Part shown: positions 28,040 through 49,350 of the stretch, piece by piece
Position numbering within the stretch: position 1 is the stretch's first letter
Layout of the letters: every line of letters starts with the position of its first letter
Source: an uncultured Actinomycetota bacterium
GTDB taxonomy: Bacteria; Actinomycetota; Actinomycetes; Actinomycetales; Microbacteriaceae
NCBI GenBank assembly: GCA_963846615.1
Contig: CAWJWQ010000011.1
Span: 173,140-237,139, forward strand
Reading direction: 5' to 3'
Length of the DNA: 64,000 nt
Program-made: the position numbers and the translations under genes
The notes under the pieces: model-generated
The model's database searches: none
Told to the model about the DNA's origin: nothing
Seen by the model: only the letters and a program-made list of their open reading frames with translations

Positions 28040-30336
28040 GTGGCCGTGCCTTTCGTCGACTCTGTGAGCAACGCCGCCGCCACCCCCGAGAAGGAGCAGC
28101 CGTACGCCGCGCTCGGGCTGAAGCCCGACGAGTACGAGCGCATCCGCGAGATCCTCGGCCGCCGCCCGACGAGCGGCGAGCTCGCCATGTACTCGGTGAT
28201 GTGGAGCGAGCACTGCTCCTACAAGAGCAGCAAGGTCTGGCTGCGGCAGTTCGGGCAGAAGGTCAGCCCCGAGATGACGAAGAACCTCATGGTCGGCATG
28301 GGCGAGAACGCCGGGGTGGTGGATATCGGCGAGGGCTGGGCGGTCACGTTCAAGATCGAGAGCCACAACCACCCGAGCTACGTCGAGCCGTTCCAGGGCG
28401 CGGCCACCGGCGTCGGCGGCATCGTGCGCGACATCATCTCGATGGGCGCCCGCCCGGTCGCCGTCATGGACGCCCTGCGCTTCGGCGCCATCGACCACCC
28501 CGACACCGCCCGCGTGCTGCCGGGCGTGGTGAGCGGCATCAGCTTCTACGGCAACTGCCTCGGACTGCCGAACATCGGCGGCGAGACCTGGTTCGATCCG
28601 GTGTACCAGGCGAACCCGCTGGTCAACGCGCTCGCGGTCGGTGTGCTGCGCCACGAGGACCTGCACCTCGCCAACGCGCGCGGCGTCGGCAACAAGGTGG
28701 TGCTCTTCGGCGCACGCACCGGGGGCGACGGGATCGGCGGCGCCAGCATCCTGGCCAGCGAGAGCTTCGAGGACGGGGAGGACGACCAAGCGCCCGGCCG
28801 TGCAGGTCGGCGACCCGTTCGCCGAGAAGGTGCTCATCGAGTGCTGCCTCGAGCTGTTCGCGGGCGACCTGGTCGAGGGCATCCAGGATCTCGGCGCGGC
28901 CGGCATCTCGTGTGCGACGAGCGAGCTCGCGGCCAACGGCGAGGGCGGCATGGCGGTCGAGCTCGACGCCGTGCTGCTGCGCGACTCCGACGCTCACGGC
29001 GGAGGAGATCCTGATGTCCGAGAGCCAGGAGCGCATGATGGCGATCGTGCAGCCCGGCAAGCTCGAGGGCTTCCTCGCCGTCACCGACAAGTGGGACGTC
29101 GAGACCAGCGTGCTCGGCGAGGTCACCGACACCGGCCGGCTCGTCATCACCTGGCGCGGCGAGACGATCGTCGATGTCGACCCGAGCACTGTCGCCGTCG
29201 ACGGACCCGTCTACGAGCGACCGCTCGCGTACCCGACCTATCAGGACAAGCTGCAGGCCGACACCGCATCCGGCCTCAAGCGGCCCGAGGGCGGCGTCGA
29301 CCTGCGCGACCAGGTGCTCCGGCTCATGGGCTCGCCGAACCTGGCCGACAAGAGCTGGATCACCAACCAGTACGACCGGTACGTGCTCGGCAACACCGCC
29401 CTGAGCTACCCCGACGACGGCGGGATGGTGCGGGTCGACGAGAACAGCGGGCTCGGTTTCGCGGTGGCGACCGATGCGAACGGCCGGTACTGCTACCTCG
29501 ACCCGTACCGCGGAGCGCAGCTCGCCCTCGCCGAGGCGTACCGCAACGTGGCCGTCACGGGCGCGACCCCGGTCGCGGTGAGCGACTGCCTGAACTTCGG
29601 CAGCCCCGAGAACCCCGAGGTCATGTGGCAGTTCTCGCAGGCGGTCGAGGGACTGGCCGACGGCTGCCTCGAGCTCGGAATCCCGGTGACCGGCGGCAAC
29701 GTCAGCTTCTACAACCAGACCGGCGACGTGCCGATCCACCCGACCCCGGTCGTCGCGGTGCTCGGCACCATCGACGACGTGGCGCGCCGCGTGCCGTCGG
29801 GCTGGCAGGACCAGGGCGACAACGTCTACCTGCTCGGCACCACATCGCTCGAGCTCGACGGCTCGGCGTGGGCCGGCGTCGTGCACGACCACCTCGGCGG
29901 GATGCCGCCCGCCGTCGATCTCGAGCGCGAGAAGGCGCTGGGCGCACTGCTGGCGGCCGCGGCTCACGAGGGGCTCTTCAACTCCGCGCACGACCTCGCC
30001 GACGGTGGGCTCGCGGCCGCGCTCGTCGAGAGCTCTCTGCGGTTCGGCGTCGGGGTGCGGGTCTTCCTCGACGACGTGCTGCAGCGCGACGGCATCGACC
30101 TGGCGACGGCGCTCTTCAGCGAGTCGACCGGCCGCGTGCTGGTCGCAGTCCCGCGCGAGGAGGACGTCAAGTTCACCCGGCTCTGCGAGGGGCGTGGGTA
30201 CCCGGTGCTGCGCATCGGGGTCACGGATGCCGGCGGTCCCGACGGCGCGGCCGTCGAGGTGCAGGACTCGTTCACGATCCCGCTCGAGGAGCTGCGCACC
30301 GCGAACCGCGCACCCTTCGCCGAGGTCATGAGTTGA
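28040..30336 (+). CDS. purL: Phosphoribosylformylglycinamidine synthase subunit PurL. Two +1 frame breaks near 28787 and 28986.
   Basis: GTG at 28040 follows GGAGG. Text reads [67 protein letters not shown] and [11 protein letters not shown]. The C-terminal half is unbroken. Confidence 0.95.
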
Positions 30337-35729: not shown

Positions 35730-38376
35730 CTACCGGGTCTGCCCGTCGTCGTCGCGCGGGTCGGAGAACCGCGGGTCGGCGGCACGGCGGTCGGGGAGTC
35801 CGATCGGACGCAGCACGGTGTCTTCGAGCCGGTTGTCGAGCACCGACTCGAGCTCCCGCTTGTCGTGGGCGAGCTGCTCCCGGATGCTGACCGCCAGCCG
35901 CTGCTGCTCGCGCATCAGGCGGTCGTGCGCGACCCGCTCGAGTTCGCGGGAACGCAGCTCGTAGCTCTCGCGCGCCTGGCGCTCGGGGTTCGGCCCGGAG
36001 TCGGTCACGGCACCCTGACGTGCGGCCCGCACCTCGACCCGCGGGAGTCCGCCGATCTCGCCGAGCAGGCTCCCGGCGACCGCGACGGTTTCGCGCTCGC
36101 GCTCGGGGGCGAGATCGGCGGTGTCGGCGGTGTCCGGCTTCCGCGCGGCCGTCGAGAACCTTCGGGGGGATCGTCGACGAGGTCGGGGCGGGCAGGATGT
36201 GGCGGATCGGCGGCGGGATCGTCGCGGCCTCCTTCGCGTCCTTCTGCATCCGGATGGAGACGGTGTTCACGACCGTGCCGGTGACGGCGGGCTCGCGCAC
36301 CCTGCCCTGGGTTCCGATCGACGGGGCGGGGGCGTTGGCGTAGGCCGACGCGACGCTGGGGGTCAGCTTCGACGGGTCGGGGGCGAACCGCGACGACCGG
36401 CCTCGGCGGATCCGGCCGGATGACGATCGGCCGCTCGACGACCTTTTCGATGGCGCCGGGCGCGACTGCTCGATCTCGGGCACGATCGATCCCGCGCGCT
36501 GCTCGTCCGCCGTCGCCGTGGGCAGTGCGGCGAACGCGAAGTCGAGATCCTTCGCCGAGGTGAGGCTGTGCTCGACCGACGTCGGCAGAGGCTCGGGCTT
36601 CGGGGGCGTGGATGCGGCGGGCACCTTGGCGGGCTTGGCGCGGGCTTGGCGGGAGCCTTGGCGGGCTTGGCCGGCTCCTGCGAAGCCTCGAGCTCGGGCG
36701 GCCACGGGCGCCGCAGGGTCGGCCAGGTGGGTCGGCGCCTTCTCGACGACGGGCGGCGCGACGGGCTTCGGCTCCCGGGGCCGGCGGCACCTCCACGACC
36801 GGCTGCCGCCTCCCGCGCGGCGGGCTCCGCCGCGCGCCGGCACGTACCGGGGCACGAACTCGGGTGCCGCCGCGGAGACCGGCAGGTCGCGCCGGCGAGC
36901 GGGGCCGCGACCGAACAGCCGGCGGCGGGGAATCGCGTTGAGCACGATGCCGACCGGGATGCTTCCGCCCGACGCGAGCAGCGAGAGGGCGTCCTCGAGG
37001 CGCGGCCGGGTCGTGGTTCCCTCCGCGAGCACCAGCAGTGTCGAGCTGTCGAAGGAGCCGAGGACGGCCGCGTCCGTGACGGCCGAGATGGCGGGCGCGT
37101 CGATCAGCACGACCTCGAAGCGGCGGCGGAGCTCCGCGACCAGCTCGCGCATCGTCGGGGTGGCGAGCAGCTCGCCCGGGTTCGAAGGGCGAGCGCCTGC
37201 GGGCAGCACCGTCAAGCGGCCGCCGTCGCTGCTCTGCAGCGCAGCATCCAGAGACGCCCGGCCGGCGAGCACCTCGGTCAGCCCCAGCGCGCCGTGGATG
37301 CCGAACAGACGCGACAGAGCTGAGCTGCGCAGGTCGGCATCCACGACGACGATCGAGGTCGCCGTGTTGGCGAGAGCCACGGCGAGGTTGGCGGTGATGG
37401 TCGTGCTCCCCTGCCCCGGCCCGGCGGCGGTGATCACGAAGCTGTGCCGTCCGTCGCGGGTGCGCAGGTGGTCGATGTGAGCACGGAGGGCGCGGAACGC
37501 CTCCGCGATCGGAGCACCCGCCCCGCTGCGGGCGACCAGCGGCGTCGTCCACACGGTGCGGTCCGCCGGGATGTCTCCCAGGATCGGGATGCGGGCGACG
37601 GCCGCGATGTCCTTCGGCCCGCGCACTCGGGTGTCGAACGCCTCGCGCAGCGACGCGGCGAGGAGGCCGACGGCCAGCCCGAGGACGCCTCCGACGAGGA
37701 GCAGCAGGCCGCCGTTCGACGGCAGCGGCGCGGTCGGCAGCGCGGCCTCTTCGATGTTGACGATGCGCACGGGGGCGATCGGCTTGCTGATCGGCACCAC
37801 CGTGCCGTTGGGCAGCTTGGTCGTCGACGGGGTCGGGGTCGGCGCCGCGCCCGCCGTGGCACCGGGGGCCGGGGTGGGGTCGACCGTCGTGCCGTTCGTG
37901 GTCTCGAGCTGGTTCGCCACGACGTCGCTGAACTCGGCGCTCACGGCGTTCGCGAGGTCGCGCGCCAGCTCGGCGCTGGCCGCCGTCGCGGTGATCTCGA
38001 TGATGAACGTTGCCGGTGGCGCCGTCACGGTGATCTGCCGAGCGAGGTCCTCGACCGTGGTGTCGAGCCCGAGGTCGTCGATGACCGGCTGGAGCACGAG
38101 ACCGCTGGATGCGACGAGCACGTAGGAGGCGATCCGCGACTCCGTGAAGTTGCTGGCCTGCAGCCACTCGGTGAGGTCGCCCGAGGTCTTGTTGGTGACG
38201 AGATCCCGCGAGGTGGCCGAGTAGCTCGGGCCCTCCATCGACTGGACGGCCGCGCCACCCAGGAGTCCGAGCACGACCCCGAGCACGATGAAGACCAGGC
38301 CGCGGCGCAGTACGCCGAGATACTCGTGGACGTCCATTGGGGGGATGGCTCCGGGGGGTGCGGGTTTCCCTGCCAC
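35730..38376 (-). CDS. Wzz-type chain-length determinant fused to a BY-kinase-like P-loop domain, with a long Pro/Ala-rich C-terminal extension and a coiled-coil tail. Frame break(s) near 36100. The start may instead be 38337.
   Basis: Text reads MDVHEYLGVLRRGLVFIVLGVVLGLLGGAAV, second TM LLLLVGGVLGLAVGLLAASL, FVITAAGPGQGSTTITANLAVALA, VVVDADLR, EVVLIDAPA and TLLVLAEGTTT. The tail in ORF 35730..36032 reads ERQARESYELRSRELERVAHDRLMREQQRLAVSIREQLAHDKRELE. Confidence 0.8.
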
Positions 38377-38452
38377 GCGGGGGGAGGACAGGTGTCTTCA
38401 GGCTAGAGAATCCGGGCCTTCTCCGACCCCGGAGGTTGCGGTGAACGCCTCA

Positions 38453-38486
38453 GGGTTGTTCGGGGTTAAGGGACGGGTTAAGGGAC
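38453..38486. promoter_or_regulatory. GGGTTAA-family array R2: GGGTTGTTCG followed by the exact tandem GGGTTAAGGGAC x2
   Basis: The exact 12-bp direct repeat lies at 38463-38474 and 38475-38486. The TTAA at 38478 supplies the TAA stop of the flippase gene. The array is 90-130 nt upstream of the Wzz/BY-kinase start. Confidence 0.55.
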
Positions 38487-39768
38487 CGTGGCGGGCACGG
38501 GCTCGACCCGTTCCGAGGGGGTCGGACTCGGTGCGGCGTCCCGGACTCCGCGCAGTGCGCTCCGCAGTGACAGGTACTGCCACACCGTGACCAGCAGGTT
38601 TCCGCTCACCAGCGCCCACACGGCGAATTCGGGCGCGAACGCCTCCACGAGCAGCAGCGCGACCAGGGTCACCAGCACTCCGACGGCGACGCTGAGGGCG
38701 ATCGTGCGCAGCCTCCCGAAGGTCATCAGCCCGATGTTGGTGAGATACGGCGAGACGATTGCCGTGGTCATGTTGATCCCGAACGCCATCGCGGCGGCGA
38801 CCGTGAAGGGGACCTGCCCGTGCGTGAGGAAGTCGCTGAACGACGGGAGGAACACGGTGTAGAGCAGCCCGCCGACGACAGCCGTGGCCAGCGTGACGGC
38901 GCCGGCGACGCGCATCCGGCGCACCAGCTCCGTCCCCGGATGCGGCGGGCACCCAGCCCTGGAACATCTGCAGCAGCGGCGAGACCGCCATCGCCACGAA
39001 CTTGCCGAGCCGCTCGGCCAGCACGAACATCGGCAGCAGGACCGGGGACAGCAGCGCGATGATCGCGAGCGCCGCGGGCATGTAGGCGGCGAGCAGGCCG
39101 GTCGCGACGACGCCGTGACGTTGCTCGACGAGGCTGCCCCAGATCCGCTGCCAGCGGGCGGCGGCGCGGAGGTCGAGCGGCTGGCCGCGAAAGATCGCAC
39201 CGCACGAGACGAGCAGCGCGACCAGTGCGCCGGCAAGCTGGCCGATGGCGAACATCAACAGCTGACCGGTGGAGGCGACGGCGATCACGCCCGCGACCGT
39301 GCCCGACACCCGCGGCACGGTTTCGAGCAACAGGAACCGGTCGGGGCGGCTCTCGCCGGTGAAGTACCAGTTCGCCGAGGCGCCCGCCATGGTCATGGCG
39401 GTGCCGGCGATGAACGCGACGAGCTTCTCCTGCGGCACGATCGCGAACGTCACGGCGGCCTGGATCGCGAGCACGGGGATGAGCAGCACAGCGCGGGCGA
39501 AGAGCGAGTCGAGGAACATGGCGGGCCGCCGCGCGGCGTCGGCCATCGCGATCGTGACCGGGCCGGTCAGGCCCCAGCCGAAGATGACGAACACGCCGAA
39601 CGATGCGCCGATCGCCTGCCCGGTGGCCATCGACGCCCAGGGGTCGGCGCCGACCACGGCCACGATCACGGGGATCGAGATCAGACTGACCGTTCCGTTC
39701 AACAGCACCGACAGGCCGAACAGGCCGATGCCGCGCGAACGCTCCACGAGCCCGGTCCGCCAGTTCAC
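38478..39768 (-). CDS. Wzx-like polysaccharide flippase (MOP/PST family). One frame break near 38930.
   Basis: The protein is multi-pass and hydrophobic throughout. Text reads GLFGLSVLLNGTVSLISIPVIVAVVGADPWASMATGQAIGASFGVFVIFGWGLTGP...ASANWYFTGESRPDRFLLLETVPRVSG. Confidence 0.75.
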
Positions 39769-39777
39769 GGCGTCATC

Positions 39778-40647
39778 TCAGCCCGCCGGGCATGCTCGAG
39801 CGCTCGGGAAAGCCTGCGCGGCGAGCTCGAGCACGTCGCGCAGCATCGCCGCGCGCACCTGGGCGCCGAACAGGGAATGGTCTCCGAAGGGGTAGTCGGT
39901 GACCCGCAGATCGGCACCGCGACGACGCAGCCGCTCGACGGCGCCGGGGCCGCGGTGGTGGGCGAAGTTCTCGGTGTCATCCGGCGTGAGCATCAGTGCG
40001 ACGACGGTGCCGGGACGCCGGGTCGCCGGCTCGAGCAGCGTCTGCGGGTCGTGGAAGAGCTGGAGCCGCGCGGCGACGCGCCAGACCCAGCCGGGGGTGC
40101 GTTCGCGGATCCGCGCCTTCAGTTCGCGGAACGGCATCCGACCCTCGATGTCCTGCCGGGTGAGTTCGGCGTACCCGTCGGCGGGCAGCCCGTGCAGCTT
40201 GAAGTACGTGGGACTGAGCAGGACGGTGAGCCGGGTCGGCCGGAGATCGGCGATGCGGGCAGCCACCCAGGCGCCGGAGCACAGCCCGACGTGGGCGATC
40301 GGGACGTCGGCCGCCAACTCGCCCACCAGCGCATCGACGTCGTCGATCCACGCCTCCGCGAAGATCAGGTTCGGTTCACCCACCCGCACCGGCGTGCTGT
40401 CGCCGGTGATGCGCCGGTCGAACCGGATCGCGCGGATGCCCCGGGCCGCCAGCTCACGCGCCGCGACGACCTGGAAGCGGCCGGGCCCGACGCGGTGCTC
40501 GGCGGCCCCGGGCTGCAGCACGACCACACCCGCCTCGGCGTCTGCCTCGTGGTGGTCTTCGCGCACGCTCTCGATCGCGAACAGGCGCTCGGGGCCGAAG
40601 CGCAGCAGCCGCTCCACGACGGCCACGCCGTCGGGCGCCGTCGCCAC
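39778..40647 (-). CDS. Alpha/beta-hydrolase-fold module 2 (nucleophile elbow GLCSG). It may be fused to module 1.
   Basis: Text reads GVVVLQPGAAEHRVGPGRFQVVAARELAARGIRAIRFDRRITGDS and IAHVGLCSGAWVAARIA. The 289-aa frame is intact and paralogous to module 1. Confidence 0.7.
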   Translation of the reverse strand: MATAPDGVAVVERLLRFGPERLFAIESVREDHHEADAEAGVVVLQPGAAEHRVGPGRFQVVAARELAARGIRAIRFDRRITGDSTPVRVGEPNLIFAEAWIDDVDALVGELAADVPIAHVGLCSGAWVAARIADLRPTRLTVLLSPTYFKLHGLPADGYAELTRQDIEGRMPFRELKARIRERTPGWVWRVAARLQLFHDPQTLLEPATRRPGTVVALMLTPDDTENFAHHRGPGAVERLRRRGADLRVTDYPFGDHSLFGAQVRAAMLRDVLELAAQAFPSARACPAG

Positions 40648-40649
40648 CC

Positions 40650-41449
40650 GGGCCTCCGCGCTGGATCCGCGGCCGGACGATCGTCCGTGCCAGCGGCATC
40701 CTGCGATCGACCCACTCGACGATCTCGCGGACGGCGCCGGCCGGAAGCACCGCGAGGGCGCTCGGCGCCTCGATCCACTCCGCGTGCCCGTCGAGCGGAG
40801 AGACCGTCGATCCGGCGGGCAGCGCGGCGGCGAACCGGGTCACCGCAGGTGCGTCGAGCTCGGCCCGGCGGACGAGGGCGAGGGTGTCGAGGGCGATGGG
40901 CGTGATCTCGACGCCTTCGAGCCACGCGATGGAGTCGGGATGAAGGGCGAGCGACAGCAGCGTGAGCCGCTCGGGGTCGGTGGCCTCCTCGCCGACCGTC
41001 AGGTCGAAGAGCGACTTCTGCCGACGGAGGAACCGGTGTCCCGACAGCGCCGGATCCCACAGCACCAGGCCGTCGAGGTCCGGGATGCGGCGCGCGGCCT
41101 CGGCGGCGAGGAGCGCCCCAGCCGCAAGGCCCGCGAGCACGATGCGCTCCACCCCCGCGGATCGGAGGGCGGTGACCGCCTGCTCGATCGTCGCCAGCCA
41201 GAGCTTCGCCGCATCCGGGACCGCCGTGTCGCCGCTGGCATCACCCTCGCCGACGTAGTCGAAGCGCAGCGATGCGATGCCGCGGGCCTCGAGCTCCTGG
41301 CTGAGCAGCCGCAGCCCGCGATAGCCGAGCACCTGCTCGTAGCCGAGCGGCGGACAGATCACGACACCGCCGCGGGCACCGCCGTCCGGCACGTGCAGGA
41401 ACCCGAGGCTCGGAGCGTCCGGGTCGCCGAACCAGGTGTCGTGCATCAT
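40650..41449 (-). CDS. Alpha/beta-hydrolase-fold module 1 (elbow reads GLAAG). No stop is found before module 2.
   Basis: Text reads MMHDTWFGDPDAPSLGFLHVPDGGARGGVVICPPLGYEQVLGYRGLRLLSQELEARGIASLRFDYVGEGDS and ERIVLAGLAAGALLAAEAA. A GGAAAGG RBS precedes the start. Confidence 0.65.
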
Positions 41450-41472
41450 CTCGGGGTCAGCGCCTTTCCGTG

Positions 41473-42418
41473 TTACAGGCCGAGGCGGGCGCGCACGCCG
41501 ACGGGCCAGCCGTCGACATCGAGACCGTGAGTGCGAAGCAGCGCGAGCGTGGTGCGCTCCATGCCGAAGGCGAGGCAGGCGGCGTGGGCGACATCGCCGT
41601 CGGCGGTGCGGATGCCGAAAGCCGCGGTGAGGTGGTCGCGCTGGCAGTTGGCGCTCGCGATCGCGGTGCCCTCGGCGAGGTCTCCGTACATCGGGACGAC
41701 GATCTCGATCTTGAGGTTCTCGCGCAGCTGGGCGCTGATCAGCATCTTGCCCGCGCGCCCGAAGAACGGGTCGTTGGCGGCCACGGCGTCGACCGGCAGG
41801 CCGAGCGACCTGCAGCGTCTCGATCGCGTTGTCCAGCCAGGTATCGCGGTACTCCTGCGCGCCGTCCGGGTCGCCGACGTACACGAACTCGTGCATCCGG
41901 AACGACTGCATGCGCATCGGATCGAGCGACGGCTCGTGGCGGAAGCCGTAGCCGAAGATGTCGAAGACGCCACCGCCCTCGGGGAGCCGTCCCTCCAGGG
42001 TGGCGTAGAGCGGGTGGCAGATCGCGTTGGTGAGCACGATCTCGCTGGGGTCGAGCCAGCCGTCCCAGGCGCTCGCCCTGCTCGCGCGCCGCGAGGAGCT
42101 GCGCGGTGCTCGCGGTCGCCGCGCTCGAAGCTGGAGACGATGCCGCTCAGGTCGGGGAACGAGGCGATGTAGTCGGTGCGCTCGAAGTCCGCGCGCGGGT
42201 ACACCGGCGGGAAGCGCAGCGCGGTCGCGCCGAGCGGCTCGGCCATCTCGACCAGCACGCGGTCGAGGCCGGTGAGGATCGCCTCGAACGTCGCGGAGCG
42301 CCCGTAGATGCCGGGCACGGACGTGCCGATCAGGAGCCCGGCGTCGAGCAGGTCGGACGCGGAACTCCAGGCGTGCGCGGTCGAGCGGGCTCAGTTCCGT
42401 TTCGAGGATGTCTGTCAT
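41473..42418 (-). CDS. Class II aminoacyl-tRNA-synthetase-like amino acid:[carrier protein] ligase (catalytic core only). At least four frame breaks.
   Basis: Text reads SVPGIYGRSATFEAILTGLDRVLVEMAEPLGATALRFPPVYPRADFERTDYIASFPDL, VLTNAICHPLY, FDIFGYGFRHEPSLDPMRMQSFRMHEFVYVG (motif 2-like) and HAACLAFGMERTTLALL (motif 3-like). The gene encodes about 315 aa and leaves no room for a tRNA-binding domain. Confidence 0.8.
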
Positions 42419-42672
42419 GCCGTCTGTCCTTCCAGGGTCAGCTGCTCCACCGCATCCCGGATCGTCGCCACGGAGGAGAAGGTCTGCTTCGTCAGCAGGT
42501 CGTCGGGGAACTCGACGTCGAAGGCGTCCTCGAGGGCGAGCATCACGTTGACGCTCGCGTGCGAGGTCATGCCGGCCGAGTACAGGTCGTCCACCTCGGG
42601 GAGGCCGGCGGCGGGCGCGCGCAGTTTGGCGTGCGCGTCGAGCACGGCCCGGATGCGGTCGTCGGTGGTCAT
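42415..42672 (-). CDS. Acyl/aminoacyl carrier protein (85 aa)
   Basis: Text reads MTTDDRIRAVLDAHAKLRAPAAGLPEVDDLYSAGMTSHASVNVMLALEDAFDVEFPDDLLTKQTFSSVATIRDAVEQL. There are ATGA overlaps on both sides. Confidence 0.8.
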   Translation of the reverse strand: MTTDDRIRAVLDAHAKLRAPAAGLPEVDDLYSAGMTSHASVNVMLALEDAFDVEFPDDLLTKQTFSSVATIRDAVEQLTLEGQTA

Positions 42673-43124
42673 GCCGTCGCCCCCTGCCGCGATGGCGAGC
42701 TGCGGTTCGGCCGGGATCGCGGCGGCGACCGCCATCGCGATGCCGCCGTCGTGGCTGAGGGAGATGTCGATGCGCGTCGATGCCCTGCCGCTCGGCGATC
42801 GCCTGCGCGGTCGCCGGTCAGCACGACACGGGGACGCCGTTGCGACCGGTGCGTACCTCGATCGACTGCCACGGCACGGCCGCCGTGCTCGGCACCCGCA
42901 GCACCTTGAGCACCGCCTCCTTGGCGGCGAACCGCCCGGCGAGGCGTTCGAGCGCCATCGGCCCCGCGGTCTGCTTTCGCTCGACGCGGGGTGAACACGC
43001 GCGCGAGGTAGCGCTCGCCGAAGAGCTCGATGCTCTCGGCGATCTCGGAGATCGGGTGGACGTCGCAGCCGATCCGGATGCGCGGGGCATGTCTCGGCGC
43101 GGCGCGCTCGGGGGTGCGCTGCAT
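42669..43124 (-). CDS. 4'-phosphopantetheinyl transferase (AcpS-like). Frame breaks.
   Basis: Text reads IRIGCDVHPISEIAESIELFGERYLARVFTP, LAGRFAAKEAVLKVL, WQSIEVRTGRNGVP and ISLSHDGGIAMAVA. Confidence 0.75.
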   Translation of the reverse strand: MQRTPERAAPRHAPRIRIGCDVHPISEIAESIELFGERYLARVFTPRRAKADRGADGARTPRRAVRRQGGGAQGAAGAEHGGRAVAVDRGTHRSQRRPRVVLTGDRAGDRRAAGHRRASTSPSATTAASRWRSPPRSRPNRSSPSRQGATA

Positions 43125-43221
43125 GGGGAGTCCTTCGGCGGACGCGACGGGGGGAACGCACGTCCGTACTCAACCTAGGGACGGGGCGCCGCCACGTCGC
43201 CGGGGAGGCCGACCGAAGCGG

Positions 43222-43246
43222 GGGATTAACCGGGGGGTTAACGCGG
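43222..43246. promoter_or_regulatory. GGGTTAA-family array R3: GGGATTAACCGG followed by GGGGTTAACGCGG
   Basis: TTAA lies at 43226 and 43238, exactly 12 bp apart. The array sits in the divergent gap between the PPTase operon (start 43124) and the GT2 gene (start 43267). Confidence 0.5.
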
Positions 43247-43266
43247 CCCTGTGAAAAGCTGGGCCC

Positions 43267-44155
43267 GTGCCCCGGCTGAGCGTCCTCATCCCCGCGCGTA
43301 ACGCCGCCGGCACGATCGGAGTCCGCTCTCCGCTCGACCCTGCGCGATCTGCCCGACGACGCCGAGATCCTGGTCCTCGACGATGCGTCGAGCGATGGCA
43401 CGGCCGAGCTCGTCCGCCGTATCGGCGATCGACGCATCCAGCTCACCGTCGCCCCTGAGAATCTCGGGGTCGCCCGCGCGCTGGCCCAGCTGCTCGATCA
43501 GGCGGAAGGCGACCTGGTAGCCCGGATGGACGCCGACGACGTCTGCCTGCCCGGCCGGTTCCGCGCCCAGCTCGCGCGCCGATCGAGCGCGGCGCCGACC
43601 TGGTCTTCTCCACGTTCCAGGTCATCGGCGCCGGGCTGCGGCTGCCGGCGCTGCCCGTACCCTTCGGGCCAGAGGCCGGTCGGCTCGCCCTGCTGCTCGA
43701 CTGCCCCTACCCGCATTCCACGGCTCTCGCTCGACGCAGCGCCCTCGTCGACGCCGGCGGCTACCGGATCGTCCGTCGCCGAGGACTACGACCTCTGGTT
43801 GCGCGCCGCCGCCGTCGGGCGCCCGCATCGTGCGGCTCGGCCGCGCCCGGCATCCTGCTGCGGGTCAGCGCCGGGCAGCTCACCGCCGATCCCGGATACC
43901 GGGTCGCGGCTCGCCGCCGATCCGCTCGTCGCCGAGTCCTACCGGGCTCTTGCGCACGAGCTGTGGGGCGTCGACGAGACGCCGTGGCTGCGGGAGCTGG
44001 CGTTTCTTCGCCAGGGACCGCTGAGCCCCGTTGGGAAGAGTCTTCTCGAGCCGTTCATCCATCGCTTCGTCACCTCACTCCGCGATCTCGGCGCGCTGGA
44101 GCGCTGGTACCTGACGCGTCGTGCCCGGCAGGAGCTCGGGCTGCGCGCTCGCTGA
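43267..44155 (+). CDS. Family 2 glycosyltransferase. Several frame breaks.
   Basis: Text reads MPRLSVLIPARNAAGTI. The shifted frame gives AEILVLDDASSDGTAELV and DLVARMDADDVCLPGRF. Later text reads VAEDYDLWLRAA. Confidence 0.8.
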
Positions 44156-44222
44156 CGAGCGGGCTCGGCAGGCCGCGCCGGAAGCACGGCGGGCACGAGG
44201 CACGCCGCGAGCCCGACCCAGA

Positions 44223-45473
44223 TCAGCGGCATCGACAGGTCGGGCACCGCGATGATCGCCCGACACCAGGATGCCGAGCAGCGCCCAGCCGGCCGGCACC
44301 GATGCGGGGCTGCGCTGCGCTGCGGCGACGCAGCGCGACGACGACGAGGGCGACCAGCAGGATCGTGCCGACGAGCCCGAGGCAGCTGAGCACGAGGAAG
44401 AACAGGCTCGACGGCCGGTGGCTGCCGAGCCCGACGCCGAGGCCGACGGTCTCGAGGAAGATCTCCCACGAGCGCTCGTTGGCGAGACCTCGGGCGAGGT
44501 AGCTGAACGACGACGCCTTGCGTTCCACCGACCCGATCGTCAGCTCGTAGAGGGCGGGCAGCTGCGTGATGCCGGCCGCGAGAGCCGCGGTGCCGAGCAC
44601 GACCATGACCGGGCTGATGCCGAACCGCGGCGAGCGCAGCTGGCGCACGAGCAGCACCGCGGCGCCCACCGCCGTCACGATGACGAGTCCGAGGAGCGCG
44701 GTGCCCGACGCGTTCGCGACGAACTCGATCCCGACGAGGACGAGGGCGACCACCGCAGCGAGACGGGCGCGCGGCGCGGCGCCGGGCCGGAACAGGCGCA
44801 CCCCGAAGTAGCAGGCCGCCGCGACGATGTAGAGGCCGAGCACCGACGGCTCGTAGAAGGTGCCCGAGAGCCGTTCGGGCGTCGCGTACGAGTAGCCGGG
44901 CATGTTCTGCAGGAGCGCGTGCGGCCACACCGGCTCTGCGACCAGCCGCACCGCCGCCAGCACGAGCGCCACCCAGAGCGCGCTGCCGAGCAGTCGGCGT
45001 GTCGACCGGGAACCGATCGCCCGGCGAGCAGCACGAAGAGCACGCCGAGGGTGAGGTATCCGAGCTGCGCGATGTTGCCGAGCGAGGGCTCGAGGAGCGC
45101 CATGTTGCCGACCTGGCCGTCGACGCCGAGCGCCGGGTCGAAGACGCGCGTTCCGGCGAAGATCCGCGGGCCGGCGATCGTGATGACCGCGGCCCAGACG
45201 ACGAGCGCGACCGCGAGCACGTCGCCGACGGAACCGCGCCGAGCCCGACCGGTCACGCACCGGGCGCGCGACCGCGATCAGCAGCCCCGGCACGCTCAGC
45301 ACCGCGAGCACGACGACCGCCAGGTAGAACAGCGGGAATCCGTTGTCGTCGACGACGAGCCCGGCGGTCTGCGGGAACGCGACGGTTGCGCCGACGACGA
45401 GCTGGGTCGAGCGGCGGTGCACGAGCCAGACGCCCACGACCGCGATGACGGTGACGATGCCGAGGAGGGTCAT
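44223..45473 (-). CDS. Wzy/O-antigen-ligase-like polysaccharide polymerase. Frame breaks. The true 3' end is uncertain and may extend to about 44100.
   Basis: The protein is multi-pass. Text reads MTLLGIVTVIAVVGVWLV, LGNIAQLGYLTLGVLFVLLAG, SGTFYEPSVLGLYIVAAACYFGV, ASGTALLGLVIVTAVGAAVLL and SWEIFLETVGLGVGLGSHRPSSLFFLVLSCLGLVG. Confidence 0.65.
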   Translation of the reverse strand: MTLLGIVTVIAVVGVWLVHRRSTQLVVGATVAFPQTAGLVVDDNGFPLFYLAVVVLAVLSVPGLLIAVARPVRDRSGSARFRRRRARGRARRLGRGHHDRRPADLRRNARLRPGARRRRPGRQHGAPRALARQHRAARIPHPRRALRAARRAIGSRSTRRLLGSALWVALVLAAVRLVAEPVWPHALLQNMPGYSYATPERLSGTFYEPSVLGLYIVAAACYFGVRLFRPGAAPRARLAAVVALVLVGIEFVANASGTALLGLVIVTAVGAAVLLVRQLRSPRFGISPVMVVLGTAALAAGITQLPALYELTIGSVERKASSFSYLARGLANERSWEIFLETVGLGVGLGSHRPSSLFFLVLSCLGLVGTILLVALVVVALRRRSAAQPRIGAGRLGAARHPGVGRSSRCPTCRCR

Positions 45474-45955
45474 CGGCCGGCCCGCTTCTTCTCAGGCGAA
45501 CGCAGCCCCTCCCGCTCGCGCAGGCCGACCCGCCGGGCCGGGATGCCGGCCCAGATCTCGTAGGGGCCGGTCGACTCGCGCAGCACCGCATTGGCGCCGA
45601 CGATGGTGCCCTCGGCGATGACGAGCTCCTGACCGGAGGCGAACAGCACCTTCGCGCCCGCGCCGACGGTCACGTCGTCACCGATGACGACGCGGCCGCC
45701 GAGGTGGGCGACCTGCTCCGGCGGGATCCAGGAGTCGGCGCGCCCGATGACGACGCCGGGCATCAGGATGACGTCGCGGCCGATCCGGGTCGAGCGGTGG
45801 ACGACGAGACCGACGGCGCCGTGGGCGAGCTCGAGCGGGCCCTCCCACTCGACCTCGCGCGGGAACTCGACGCCGAGGGCCTTCAGGGCGAGGTATGCGG
45901 CGCGCCCCACGATGCGCGAGCGCGTGGCCCGCAGCAGGCGGTCCTGGACGCTCAT
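45470..45955 (-). CDS. Hexapeptide-repeat (left-handed beta-helix) acetyltransferase. Intact.
   Basis: Text reads IGRDVILMPGVVIGRAD and GGRVVIGDDVTVGAGAKVLFASGQELVIAEGTIVGANAVL. ATGA overlap with the GT4 gene. Confidence 0.8.
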   Translation of the reverse strand: MSVQDRLLRATRSRIVGRAAYLALKALGVEFPREVEWEGPLELAHGAVGLVVHRSTRIGRDVILMPGVVIGRADSWIPPEQVAHLGGRVVIGDDVTVGAGAKVLFASGQELVIAEGTIVGANAVLRESTGPYEIWAGIPARRVGLREREGLRSPEKKRAGR

Positions 45956-47130
45956 GCGCGCACCCTCGCGAGCTCGTCGTACAGCCTCAGCACGCGCTCG
46001 CCGTGCACGTCGAAGTCGAGATCGCGGGCGCGCTCCCGTGCGCCCGCCGCGAGGCGGGATCGCAGGGCGGGATCGAGCAGGCGCGACATGCCCGCGCGGA
46101 TGGCCGCGGCATCCGGGGCCACCAGCACGCCGTTCGCCTCGGGCTCGACGACCGGCGGAGCGGCGACGGTCGTGCTGAGGATCGGCAGCCCGGCGAGCAC
46201 GCCCTCGGCCGCGGCGAGCGGGAAGTTCTCGGGCCAGATCGACGGGATGACGAGCACGCCGGCCGCGGCCAGCGCCGTCCGACGTGCCGTCTCGTCGAGC
46301 CAGCCGAGCTTGCGCACGCGTCCTGCCGCGGCGGCCGCGTCGACGGCGGGCTCCATCGGCCCGGAGCCGGCGATCCAGAGCTCGGCGCCGGGAAGCCCGT
46401 CGCCCCACGCCTCGAGCAGCAGCCCGACGCCCTTCGTGTCGAGCAGCTTGCCGAGGAACAGGAACACGACCGGGTCCGCGGCGCGGGTCGGGCGCGCGCC
46501 CGCGCCGCGACGGACGCGGCGCCCAGCCGCCAGCCGTGCGGCAGCACGGTCGTGCGCTCCGGCAGCGGCAGCCCCCACCGCGCGTGCTTGTCGCGCAGCC
46601 GCGCGTTCGGGAACACCAGGTGCGCCGCTCCGACCGTGCGGCTCACCACCGCCGTGCGCAGGCGCTGCACGAGCGGCGGCCGCGCGGCCTCGACGCCCCG
46701 GCGCAGCAGGGTCGAGCTGGTGTCGACGAGGGCGTAGTCGTGCACGGTGACGATGACGGGCGCGGGCGACGAGGCGAGCAGCGCGGAACCGAATCCGGCG
46801 ACGCGGTGCACGTGCACGAGGTCGAAGCCCGGCGAGCGCGCGGCGCACGGCGGTCGGGGTGCGGATGCTGCCCAGCAGGTCGAGCGCGTGGAACAGCACG
46901 GCCGCCGGACGCGATCCCTTGCGATCGGGCGGGTACGGCCGGCGGCTGCGCACGACGCGGACCGCGATGCCCTCGCCGGCGAGCTGCCCGGCGAGTCCGG
47001 GCGAGATCCAGCCGGTCACGATCGTGACCTCGTGCCCGTGATCGCGCAGCCAGCGGCTGAGCTCGAGGCAGTACTGCTCCGCCCCGCCCAGCGGCGCCAG
47101 CAACGAGCTCACGAACTGCGCGATCTTCAC
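45952..47130 (-). CDS. GT4-family glycosyltransferase (a). Frame breaks.
   Basis: Text reads VKIAQFVSSLLAPLGGAEQYCLELSRWLRDHGHEVTIVTG, HVHRVAGFG, VFLFLGKLLDTKGVGLLLEAW and VLVIPSIWPENFPLAAAEGVLAGLPIL. Confidence 0.8.
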   Translation of the reverse strand: MKIAQFVSSLLAPLGGAEQYCLELSRWLRDHGHEVTIVTGWISPGLAGQLAGEGIAVRVVRSRRPYPPDRKGSRPAAVLFHALDLLGSIRTPTAVRRALAGLRPRARAPRRRIRFRAARLVARARHRHRARLRPRRHQLDPAAPGRRGRAAAARAAPAHGGGEPHGRSGAPGVPERAAARQARAVGAAAAGAHDRAAARLAAGRRVRRGAGARPTRAADPVVFLFLGKLLDTKGVGLLLEAWGDGLPGAELWIAGSGPMEPAVDAAAAAGRVRKLGWLDETARRTALAAAGVLVIPSIWPENFPLAAAEGVLAGLPILSTTVAAPPVVEPEANGVLVAPDAAAIRAGMSRLLDPALRSRLAAGARERARDLDFDVHGERVLRLYDELARVRA

Positions 47131-48232
47131 GGCAGGCTCGGCTCCTGTCGCGGCCTCCGACGCGAACCGGCACGCGGGGCGTCGATCGCGAGGCCGAGCA
47201 GGATGGCGGCGGTGCGGTCCCACGAGAAGCGCTCGACGTTGCGGTGCCCGTGCGAGATGAGGCGGCGGCGCTCCGCCGGCGACGAAGCTCGCGCACGCGC
47301 GCGACCGCATCCTGCGGGCCGCAGCGGGTCGAAGTACAGGGCGCCCTCGCCGGCGACCTCGGGGATCGAGGCGCGCGTCCGACGCGATCACCGGGCAGCC
47401 GAGCGCCTGCGCCTCGACCAGCGGCAGGCCGAAGCCCTCGTAGAGCGACGGGAAGACGAGGGCGCGCGCGTTCCGCAGCAGCAGCGCGAGCTCGCCGTCG
47501 CTGAGCCGACCGGCGAGATGGATGCCGGGGGCGTCGAGCGCGCGACTCGTCGCGCGAACACGCGGCGGGCTCCGGCCGCGCCGACGACGACGACCGGGAT
47601 GCCGGCCTCGGCGAGCGCGCGGGTGACCGGGCCGAGGTTCTTGCTCGGCGTGAGGTTGCCGACGCAGAGCACGTAGTCGTCGGCGCGTGCGCGCCGCCAG
47701 CTCGGTGCCGAGGGTGAGCTCGGCGCGCGTCGGCGCGCGCCTCGAACGCGTGCTCGTGCCCGTTCGGCGCGAGGGCGAAGCGCGCCGGAGTCGACGCCGA
47801 GCACGTCGGCGAGCTCGCCGCGGCTGAACTCCGACACCGTCGCCAGGTGACGGGCGCGCCGTGCGAGCACCCGGTACAGCACCGAGTACCAGAGCACGAA
47901 GCGCCGCGAGAAGGTGCGGGGGAAGCGCGCCGGCGTCACGTCGTGCATCACGACGAGCTGGTCGCGCTTCAGCGATCGGCGCCGGTCCGGCGAGGTTGAG
48001 CAGCATCGCGCCGCGGGCGCGCCACGGCAGCGCGAGCTGCTCGAACGCGATGCCGCGCGAGCCGGGACCGCAGCACGCGCGCCGGCGGGAAGCCAGTCCG
48101 GCAGCGACCGCGTCGCGCGGGACGACGACACGCGCCGCCGGGATCGAGGTCGAGCACGCGTCGTGCGACCTCGCCCGCGTAGCGCTGCATGCCGCTCGCC
48201 TGCGCGCTCAGCCACTTGCCGTTGATCAGCAC
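47127..48232 (-). CDS. GT4-family glycosyltransferase (b). Many frame breaks.
   Basis: Text reads LINGKWLSAQASGMQRYAGEVARRVL, LVVMHDVTPARFPRTFSRRFVLWYSVLYRVLARRARHLATVSEFSRGELA, DYVLCVGNLTPSKN and ALVFPSLYEGFGLPLVEAQALGCPVIAS. GTGA overlap with GT4 (a). Confidence 0.8.
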
Positions 48233-49350
48233 CGGCTGTCGGCCGCCACCGCGGTAGCCGGCTCGAGGGTCGCGCTGCCTGGCGTTCGGCGTGTTCCCGC
48301 CAGGACGCCGCTGCCAGGCGGCGAGGTTCGCGCTGCCGGGCGGCCTCGCCGCCGCGCAGCAGCTCCTCGGCGGCGGCCGCCATCTCCTCGGGCGTCGTGA
48401 TGCCGGGGGTCGCGGTCGCACCGGCCATGCGTCGGCACCTCGCGGGCGATCACCGGGACGCCGAGCTCGATCGCCTCGAGGATCGACGACCGGGAAGCCC
48501 TCCCAGCGCGCGGTGTGCAGGTAGACGCCCGCCTGCGCCGAGCGCGCGGTGCGCGTCGAACGACGACAGCCAGCCGCGTGACCGGGATGCCGGCGCGCTC
48601 GAGGCCGCACCGCGCGATCCGGTCGTCGCCGTCGCCGATCCAGCGGGCGTCGAGGTCGGGGCGGCCGTTGCGGCGCAGGTGCAGCACGGCGGCGCGGAAG
48701 AAGTCGGGGTCCTTCTGCGCGCCGATGCGCCCGACCGCGACGACCCGGTTCGGGTCGCGGTGCTCGAGCATCGCGAGCGCGGGGACGCGGGCGACGTTCG
48801 GCACGTGGATGACGCGCGCCGACGCCGCGTGCCAGCTGCGGCGATGCCGGTGCGCGCCTCCCCGGGCGAGCAGGCGGCGATCGTGTCGGTGTTGCGGGCG
48901 AGCAGCGCGCTCGGCGAGCGCGGATCGCGAGCCGGACGCGCCGGCGACAGGTCGCGGCGCTCGAACGCGAAGCAGTGCGGGCTGTAGACGAGTCGGCGGT
49001 CGGGGCGGCGTGCGCAGCGCGGTGCGCACGAAGAATCCGGCGTACGACGAGTGCGCGTGCACGACGTCGGGCTCGCACGGCCACGACACCGCGGCGGATC
49101 GCGCGGCGCGCGGCGCGCGGTCCCGCGGGCAGCACGCCGACGCTCGCGAAGCCCTGCTCGTCCTCGGCGGCGAACTCCGACGCGGCGGACGCCGCGCAGC
49201 AGGTGGTGTTCGATGCTCGGGGGTCGCGGCGACGAACTGCAGCACGGCGGCGCGCACTCCGGCGCCCCAGCTCTCGACGACGTGCAGCACGACCACCCGG
49301 TCGCCCGGACCAGTCGGAGCGCCGCCCTCGTGCGCTGTCGACACGGTCAT
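48226..49350 (-). CDS. GT4-family glycosyltransferase (c). Many frame breaks.
   Basis: Text reads MTVSTAHEGGAPTGPGDRVVVLHVVESWGAGV, VVHAHSSYAGFFVR, VAVGRIGAQKDPDFF and YLHTARWEGFP followed by ILEAIELGVPVIA. Confidence 0.7.
   Translation of the reverse strand: MTVSTAHEGGAPTGPGDRVVVLHVVESWGAGVRAAVLQFVAATPEHRTPPAARRPPRRSSPPRTSRASRASACCPRDRAPRAARSAAVSWPCEPDVVHAHSSYAGFFVRTALRTPPRPPTRLQPALLRVRAPRPVAGASGSRSALAERAARPQHRHDRRLLARGGAHRHRRSWHAASARVIHVPNVARVPALAMLEHRDPNRVVAVGRIGAQKDPDFFRAAVLHLRRNGRPDLDARWIGDGDDRIARCGLERAGIPVTRLAVVVRRAPRARRRRASTCTPRAGRASRSSILEAIELGVPVIAREVPTHGRCDRDPRHHDARGDGGRRRGAAARRRGRPAARTSPPGSGVLAGTRRTPGSATLEPATAVAADSRC

Follow-up and report, generated by a model that had tools for sequence, protein, structure and literature searches.

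A fused pair of alpha/beta-hydrolase domains, one with a cysteine triad and one catalytically dead, as a candidate for aminoacyl transfer from carrier protein to surface glycan

The minus strand of positions 39778-41449 in a 64,000-nucleotide stretch of DNA from an uncultured member of the Microbacteriaceae that, judged by the nearest named relatives, is Pseudolysinimonas-like (Actinomycetota; GenBank assembly GCA_963846615.1, contig CAWJWQ010000011.1, positions 173,140 to 237,139; the whole stretch is called the window below) carries two tandem alpha/beta-hydrolase modules, here termed the double hydrolase. With moderate confidence, this region is read as the gene of one soluble, cytoplasmic protein of ~556 amino acids, in which a dead N-terminal domain is joined to a C-terminal domain with a cysteine nucleophile, and which unloads aminoacyl-S-acyl carrier protein (aminoacyl-S-ACP) onto a glycan intermediate. 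Behind this proposal stand the fusion of the two modules, the conserved active-site residues, the fold and the surrounding genes, all of them observed. That a thioester intermediate forms, what accepts the aminoacyl group and what the N-terminal domain does are deduced from that gene context, from the precedent of the transferases CmaE, SyrC and CouN7, and from a prediction published in 2010 (PMC2922099).

The ligase encoded directly upstream belongs to a group of enzymes that resemble aminoacyl-tRNA synthetases (aaRS) and load amino acids onto small carrier proteins. Their structures are more than a decade old, and a role in the aminoacylation of a cell-surface sugar was predicted for the system in 2010 (PMC2922099), whereas a review from 2022 still regards what they do as unknown (PMC9437257). 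No function is assigned to the hydrolase pair in the literature searched, and a single candidate unloading enzyme directly behind the ligase makes the role of the latter testable.

One gene interrupted by one extra base

Module 1 (N-terminal) and module 2 (C-terminal) lie in different reading frames of the window, and a preliminary description, made from the sequence alone, suggested that an indel may have split a single two-domain protein. As it had noted, no stop codon separates them: the frame of module 1 is open to 40454 and that of module 2 is open from 40839. Comparison with intact orthologs bears out the suggestion. With the ortholog from a collinear same-genus locus (L013) as tblastn query, residue 268 falls at 40661 and the match resumes in the next frame with residue 270 at 40656; because the four bases 40657-40660 represent one residue, one base is extra. 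Tracking of the reading frame by the G+C content of third codon positions (GC3), in a window of 70-73% G+C, places the frame switch at ~40625-40650.

Every ortholog examined is fused into one open reading frame of ~520-630 amino acids. In seven same-genus genomes the match to module 2 lies inside an open frame of 551-889 codons, and the aligned proteins are continuous through both modules. When the read-through product (P0006) was searched against 5.8 billion proteins, 134 relatives came back, nearly all of them 530-660 amino acids long and covering 94-100% of the query; this product was built by reading CGAC as one arginine, and its nine wrong residues (265-273) affect the linker only and leave the domains untouched. 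An intact protein of 560 amino acids, 92% identical, is present in metagenomes. In a scan of GTDB species genomes more than 587 double-hydrolase loci were confirmed, and in the 80 that were retained, to which all residue and context counts for loci given below refer, the gene is one long open reading frame (ORF) in 80/80. The residue counts for proteins refer to 83 aligned database sequences, which are likewise fused.

The extra base is most likely an assembly indel, because frameshifts are dense in this genome, purL included, and because few contigs are combined with low completeness. Comparison with L013 reveals ~16 frame changes within the 13.5 kb of the surrounding cluster (35800-49300), and the purine-synthesis gene purL is also frameshifted (28985-28987). 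The assembly comprises 2.6 Mb in 11 contigs with a marker completeness of 60%, whereas relatives of similar size reach 97-98%. Together the frameshifts and the 11 contigs at this completeness point to an indel-rich long-read assembly, and split genes in it are not to be taken for biology. A programmed frameshift was rejected, the shift at 40657-40660 being found in no ortholog.

It is improbable that the frameshift is real and that it leaves a pseudogene, or two separate proteins with module 2 restarting at the GTG at 40647 (as an ORF of its own this module runs from 40647 to 39778 on the minus strand, 289 residues). The frameshifts in nearly every gene of the cluster as well as in purL, the small number of contigs at 60% completeness and the intact metagenomic protein all argue against it, and module 1 would then end in a 65-residue, arginine-rich, out-of-frame tail. 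Such a restart would nevertheless mimic the two-gene layout of proteobacteria, where the bona fide hydrolase 2/hydrolase 1 pair described below is made as two proteins; the extra G creates the sequence GGAGG four bases upstream of the GTG (40645-40656); and the acyl-CoA-dehydrogenase-like gene is also missing from this genome, so that the cassette has been altered here.

The two modules are 33% identical over 108 residues (E = 9e-6) with their nucleophile elbows in register, which agrees with the earlier view of them as duplicates insofar as they are paralogs. The duplication is ancient, however, and not local, since the modules resemble two separate NCBIfam families. A recent local duplication was rejected on the limited extent of this identity and on the different curated families of the modules (TIGR03101-like versus TIGR03100-like).

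A conserved cysteine triad and a maintained inactive domain

The codons for cysteine in the elbow of module 2 (40279-40281) and for alanine in that of module 1 (41123-41125) lie exactly where the preliminary description had placed them. In the C-terminal domain, Cys390 and His524 are each conserved in 83/83 proteins and 79/80 loci, and position 491 is acidic in 81/83 proteins (Asp in 74/83, Glu in 7/83). The GLCSG elbow is thus conserved among orthologs. The catalytic His and Asp are both present in module 2, and the orthologs do not carry GxSxG in both modules, so that neither of the two findings named beforehand as refuting the preliminary description is seen. In a structural model made with AlphaFold2 (AF2), Cys390, Asp491 and His524 occupy the canonical positions after beta5, beta7 and beta8, respectively.

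The cysteine is not peculiar to the fused proteins. Proteins with GLCSGA came back from a word-indexed search with module 2, but such a search favours hits that share this word, and the result was retested by index-free HMMER and with bona fide TIGR03100 genes. The index-free search with a module-2-type profile retrieved 16102 representative proteins, among which 4038 reach E <= 1e-30, and GxCxG is present in ~145 of the top 148 of these 16102 matches. Cysteine at the elbow is therefore a family-wide signature, and the family is very large and uncharacterised. The arrangement had been described as unusual; it is instead the hallmark of a family with 4038 representatives at this threshold.

The N-terminal domain lacks a nucleophile family-wide, in keeping with what had been said of module 1, but GLAAG is not its conserved state: arginine is the norm, and Ala, Gly, Ser or Thr occur in some lineages. 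Among the proteins, Arg is the commonest residue at the nucleophile position (41), followed by Ala (14), Ser (12), Gly (11) and Thr (5); among the loci the distribution is Arg 67, Ala 7, Gly 4 and Ser 2. The position of the catalytic His is mostly Gln, and Ser and His are found together in 1/83 proteins. Two same-genus orthologs that are 51% identical (L007, L008) have Ser at the nucleophile position (GLSSGA) with Gln at the His position, such that this Ser lies outside any triad and the nucleophile position simply drifts among small residues within the genus. Because the domain is strongly conserved elsewhere, for example at Cys32 in the motif ICPPLG (82/83 fused proteins, 73/80 loci), it is a maintained pseudo-enzyme and not a decaying copy. 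In the dead domain Cys32 takes up the oxyanion-hole position, where the stand-alone bona fide hydrolase 2 has His-Pro-Phe; this Cys might provide a second thiol or have a purely structural part.

The AF2 model, built on the 83-sequence alignment, has a predicted local distance difference test score (pLDDT) of 95 and a predicted template modelling score (pTM) of 0.94, and consists of two complete canonical alpha/beta-hydrolase domains with elbows at 108-110 and 389-391, the former between strand 103-108 and helix 110-119. Both domains match esterases and lipases in Foldseek with probability 1.0, and Pfam Hydrolase_4 is matched by module 1 at 30.9 bits (above the cut-off of 27) and by module 2 at 25.2 bits, just below it. 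On the modelled fold, both domains belong to the alpha/beta-hydrolase superfamily, with the triad present in module 2 only. Sequence and fold searches of the PDB yielded only generic serine esterases, lipases and PETase-like enzymes, and no two-domain build of this kind was found among solved structures by Foldseek or by PDB sequence-profile searches. Neither a signal peptide nor a transmembrane segment was detected in the protein; the maximum KD19 value, 1.66, falls on the core beta5-elbow segment.

Relation to the exosortase-associated hydrolases

The nearest curated families are TIGR03101 and TIGR03100, "hydrolase 2" and "hydrolase 1" of exosortase A systems, which are hypothetical equivalogs. 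TIGR03101 is nearest to module 1 (3e-19, 69.6 bits; 86 bits with the fused chain; cut-off 202.75) and TIGR03100 to module 2 (4e-9, 36.1 bits; 66.5 bits fused; cut-off 168.45), all scores being below the cut-offs. Along the fused chain the NCBIfam matches run TIGR03101 then TIGR03100, and distant fused relatives from mycobacteria, Curtobacterium and Paraburkholderia agree, again below the cut-offs. TIGR03100 is matched above its cut-off in 13/81 sampled Burkholderiales genomes, and no bona fide member was found in five proteobacterial genomes that carry the fused protein.

In the bona fide pairs of Burkholderiales, hydrolase 2 is encoded immediately upstream of hydrolase 1, in the same order as in the fusion. 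The elbow of five bona fide hydrolase 1 members (WGLCDAA) aligns with GLCSGA of the window, the His and acid columns being common to both, while five of five aligned bona fide hydrolase 2 members have Arg at the nucleophile position, GLR(L/S)G, as do most fused proteins (67/80). The window protein and its nearest relatives depart from hydrolase 2 in having Ala at this dead position and, in the N-terminal domain, CPP in place of HPF. In one bona fide exosortase A locus (G070), a polysaccharide locus, a small ACP is encoded directly upstream of the hydrolase 2-hydrolase 1 pair, with an ANL ligase (TIGR03098), a pyridoxal phosphate (PLP)-dependent decarboxylase (TIGR03099), a VanZ/Wzy-like membrane protein and an AsnB-like amidotransferase as neighbours. 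The window cassette has an aaRS-like class II ligase and not the ANL ligase TIGR03098, and it lacks the PLP decarboxylase; its double hydrolase, like the orthologs, is one chain where the bona fide pair is two proteins. Exosortase A (TIGR03109) had no match in this genome, at 60% completeness, nor in four genomes of the genus that are 97-98% complete.

The window protein is a Rosetta-stone fusion of the two-protein unit of the family, and not a member of an exosortase A system. The fusion suggests that the exosortase-associated hydrolases 1 and 2 act as a single enzyme consisting of an active cysteine subunit and a dead partner, a reading that would re-annotate thousands of "alpha/beta hydrolase" entries, counted as the 4038 representative clusters mentioned above. 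What is new here is the covalent fusion, the aaRS-like loader, the minimal cassette and the Ala variant of the dead site.

Association with a carrier protein, its ligase and glycosyltransferases

In the window, inside a Wzx/Wzy surface-polysaccharide locus, the gene order is 4'-phosphopantetheinyl transferase (PPTase), ACP, ligase, double hydrolase. In 49/80 loci both the ligase and an ACP are encoded no more than 8 kb from the double hydrolase, usually directly upstream and co-directional; an acyl-CoA-dehydrogenase-like gene is that close in 43/80 and a PPTase in 33/80. These loci belong to Actinomycetota, Acidobacteriota, Gemmatimonadota and Pseudomonadota. The double hydrolase adjoins genes for glycosyltransferases, Wzx or Wzy in 6/6 annotated loci read, as it does in the window, and in one proteobacterial version it sits within a divergent Wzy-GT4-GT4-Wzx operon.

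Proteobacterial operons (L080, 1809-9725; L121, 1-11920) have a longer composition, namely ACP, dehydrogenase, ligase, the papain-like DUF1839, a GH2-like glycosidase and the double hydrolase, with a ketoacyl synthase ahead of the ACP in L080. DUF1839 (Atu2574) was predicted to be a transferase by Aravind and colleagues in a note added in proof in 2010 (PMC2922099), and its papain-like nature has been described (PMC10318531). The DUF1839 and glycosidase neighbours in L080 and L121 match those named in the 2010 work, where the hydrolase goes unmentioned. Neither DUF1839 nor another candidate transferase, nor GH2, was found in the window cassette, and the cassettes of actinobacterial relatives likewise contain no DUF1839 or other transferase. 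Ligase, ACP, PPTase and double hydrolase would thus form a minimal four-protein system that dispenses with DUF1839, GH2 and the dehydrogenase.

Proposed mechanism and alternatives

In the mechanism proposed, the PPTase would convert the ACP to holo-ACP, and the aaRS-like ligase would then place a small amino acid on its thiol. Attack of Cys390 on the resulting aminoacyl-S-ACP thioester would yield an aminoacyl-S-enzyme. His524 and Asp491 would next activate the accepting group, a hydroxyl or an amine on a lipid-linked repeat unit or on some other glycan intermediate, and the aminoacyl group would pass to it ahead of flipping by Wzx. The dead N-terminal domain may be a constant companion that holds the carrier protein or the acceptor. 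Both the uptake of the aminoacyl group from the carrier by the cysteine and a docking or acceptor-binding part for the Ser-less copy had been suggested in the preliminary description, and the gene context is consistent with them. Transfer is favoured because an ACP and the ligase are near the gene in 49/80 loci and because an ACP is encoded directly upstream of bona fide hydrolase 2-hydrolase 1. That enzymes with an alpha/beta fold can move carrier-bound acyl groups is established for CmaE, SyrC and CouN7 (PMC8748450).

More tentatively, and with less confidence than is placed in the proposal for the window protein, the hydrolase pair might supply the step that is missing after the aaRS-like amino acid:carrier-protein ligases, and might more generally be a universal "carrier-protein-to-glycan" acyltransferase module of many phyla, decorating surface polysaccharides with amino acids or small acyl groups from the cytoplasm. 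If true, it would constitute a cytoplasmic counterpart of Dlt-type decoration.

Several observations weigh against transfer. A cysteine nucleophile also fits plain hydrolysis, as in dienelactone hydrolase. No ligase or ACP is present within 8 kb in 31/80 loci; in two annotated loci (L130, 7619-10794; L131, 7747-10707) a GT4 gene is directly upstream and neither ACP nor ligase occurs in 9 kb on either side, such that the acyl donor must be encoded elsewhere or be a different one, and one further annotated locus has GT2 upstream with no ACP or ligase in view. The ligase was found in 4/300 sampled Actinomycetota genomes, and the double hydrolase lies within ~7 kb of it in two of these, 500 kb off in one, and is absent from one. 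In the proteobacterial operons, DUF1839 is encoded between the ligase and the double hydrolase, which may do something else there.

The main rival, judged unlikely, is a hydrolytic thioesterase that would cleave aminoacyl- or acyl-S-ACP to free a product or to clear mis-loaded carrier in the manner of a type II thioesterase, transfer being left to another enzyme such as DUF1839. The alpha/beta-hydrolase fold, with esterases as its closest structural matches, and the co-occurrence of DUF1839 in proteobacterial operons are consistent with this function, which is more plausible in those operons than in the window, where, as in the actinobacterial cassettes, a candidate transferase other than the double hydrolase is wanting. 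Editing thioesterases use serine, and an invariant cysteine with an obligatory dead partner is not their pattern; nor would the constant link to glycosyltransferases, kept even without a nearby ACP, be easy to explain for an editing enzyme. Less likely still is an esterase or deacylase that acts on the polysaccharide itself, for instance in removal or remodelling of O-acyl groups, with no direct use of a carrier protein. The two loci with GT4 and the one with GT2 upstream, with no ACP or ligase in view, would suit it, as would the strong generic esterase fold matches. It does not account, however, for the ligase and ACP that accompany the gene in most loci, or for the ACP directly upstream of the bona fide pair, and the protein has no export signal whereas the mature polymer is extracellular.

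Polyhydroxyalkanoate synthases have a Cys-His-Asp triad and a GxCxG "lipase box", and by analogy of triad type and box the double hydrolase might be a PhaC-like polymerase, joining units from the carrier protein into a short chain of esters or amides on the polysaccharide. This is highly improbable: no Pfam or NCBIfam similarity to PhaC families emerged in any search, each two-domain unit has just a single active site of the Cys type, and the gene context holds no hint of a polymerised loaded unit.

Comparison with characterised systems

The proposed transfer has the same logic as that of CmaE, SyrC and CouN7, in which an aminoacyl or acyl group passes from a carrier thioester to an enzyme nucleophile and then onward, in the case of CouN7 to a sugar hydroxyl (PMC8748450). 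These enzymes differ from the double hydrolase in being single-domain, in having no dead partner and in belonging to nonribosomal peptide synthetase pathways, and the acceptor of CmaE and SyrC is a second carrier protein. The likeness to CmaE and SyrC would be one of mechanism only; both reportedly use an active-site cysteine.

The Bll0957 and Atu2573 systems (Mocibob et al. 2010, 2013) are related by gene content: the window ligase is a clear homolog, the ACP matches NF005480, and the proteobacterial operon versions also end in a double hydrolase. Unlike these, the window cassette lacks DUF1839, GH2 and the acyl-CoA-dehydrogenase-like gene. The published work on them ends with the loaded carrier protein (PMC9437257).

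D-alanylation by the Dlt system (DltA/DltC/DltB/DltD) shares the sequence of adenylating enzyme, small carrier protein and cell-envelope glycopolymer. It differs in that the loader is an ANL enzyme, not an aaRS-like one, and in that transfer takes place outside the cell with the membrane MBOAT protein DltB, whereas the candidate transferase here is soluble and cytoplasmic; no DltB-like gene was seen in the cassette. Dienelactone hydrolase also has a cysteine nucleophile in an alpha/beta-hydrolase elbow, and some orthologs bear that name in JGI records. It is single-domain and from another Pfam family (PF01738), for which a precomputed match exists in only two of the listed proteins, and its catabolic context is absent here.

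Neighbouring genes

The features of the cluster are collected in Table 1. The stop codon TGA of the ACP gene overlaps the ATG of the ligase gene (ATGA, 42415-42418). Fragments of the ligase match NF005479 at 217.9 and 106.1 bits in two frames, with tblastn pieces in frames -2 and -1, and it is the frameshifts alone that keep them below the cut-off of 357; PDB 4h2w/3mey, "Amino acid--[acyl-carrier-protein] ligase 1", crystal structures of Bll0957, are matched by the undamaged ortholog of the ligase at 1.8e-64. With an NF005479-type ligase adjoining an NF005480-type ACP, the cassette is of the amino acid:carrier-protein ligase operon type.

Table 1. Double hydrolase and adjacent features (window coordinates)
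Feature	Position	Strand	Evidence and details
Multi-pass membrane protein, downstream, frameshifted	38398..39768	-	tblastn with the 441-amino-acid protein of L013, two pieces in two frames
C-terminal module, hydr1_PEP-like alpha/beta-hydrolase, Cys-His-Asp triad	39778..40656	-	stop codon at 39778-39780; elbow GLCSGA, Cys390 codon TGC 40279-40281; Asp491 39976-39978; His524 39877-39879
Frameshift site, "cgcg" in place of a single ortholog codon	40657..40660	-	tblastn, one base extra
N-terminal module, hydr2_PEP-like alpha/beta-hydrolase pseudo-enzyme	40661..41449	-	~263 residues, ATG at 41449; elbow GLAAGA, Ala109 codon GCG 41123-41125; Cys32 (ICPPLG) 41354-41356; His222 40784-40786
Amino acid:[carrier protein] ligase, class II aaRS-like, Bll0957 family, two or three frameshifts	41473..42418	-	NF005479, tblastn
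Acyl carrier protein, 85 amino acids	42415..42672	-	NF005480 94.7 bits (cut-off 72) and Pfam PP-binding
4'-phosphopantetheinyl transferase (ACPS), frameshifted	42739..43124	-	tblastn with ACPS of L013, three pieces in three frames; Pfam ACPS via the ortholog

The window is collinear with the L013 locus, whose double hydrolase is 69% identical. There the order is a priming transferase, three GT4 modules, a hexapeptide acetyltransferase, a 476-amino-acid membrane protein, GT2, the PPTase (ACPS), the ACP, an acyl-CoA-dehydrogenase-like protein, the aaRS-like amino acid:carrier-protein ligase, the double hydrolase, a 441-amino-acid membrane protein, a Wzz/kinase-like protein and a LuxR-type regulator. 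Neither the window copy of the downstream membrane protein nor its intact ortholog has a Pfam match; from position and hydrophobic sequence, the protein is probably a Wzx-type flippase.

The acyl-CoA-dehydrogenase-like gene lies between the ACP and ligase genes in four same-genus genomes (L013, 7865-9049; L118; L119; L120). It is cleanly absent from the ACP/ligase junction of the window, and nowhere in this genome, at 60% completeness, did a copy turn up; should the absence be real, the organism would transfer an unmodified aminoacyl group. Another actinobacterial genome carries two amino acid:carrier-protein ligase cassettes 10 kb apart (G353:C1:729149-740311; L126, L129), one with and one without the dehydrogenase, and its sole double hydrolase is encoded 500 kb away.

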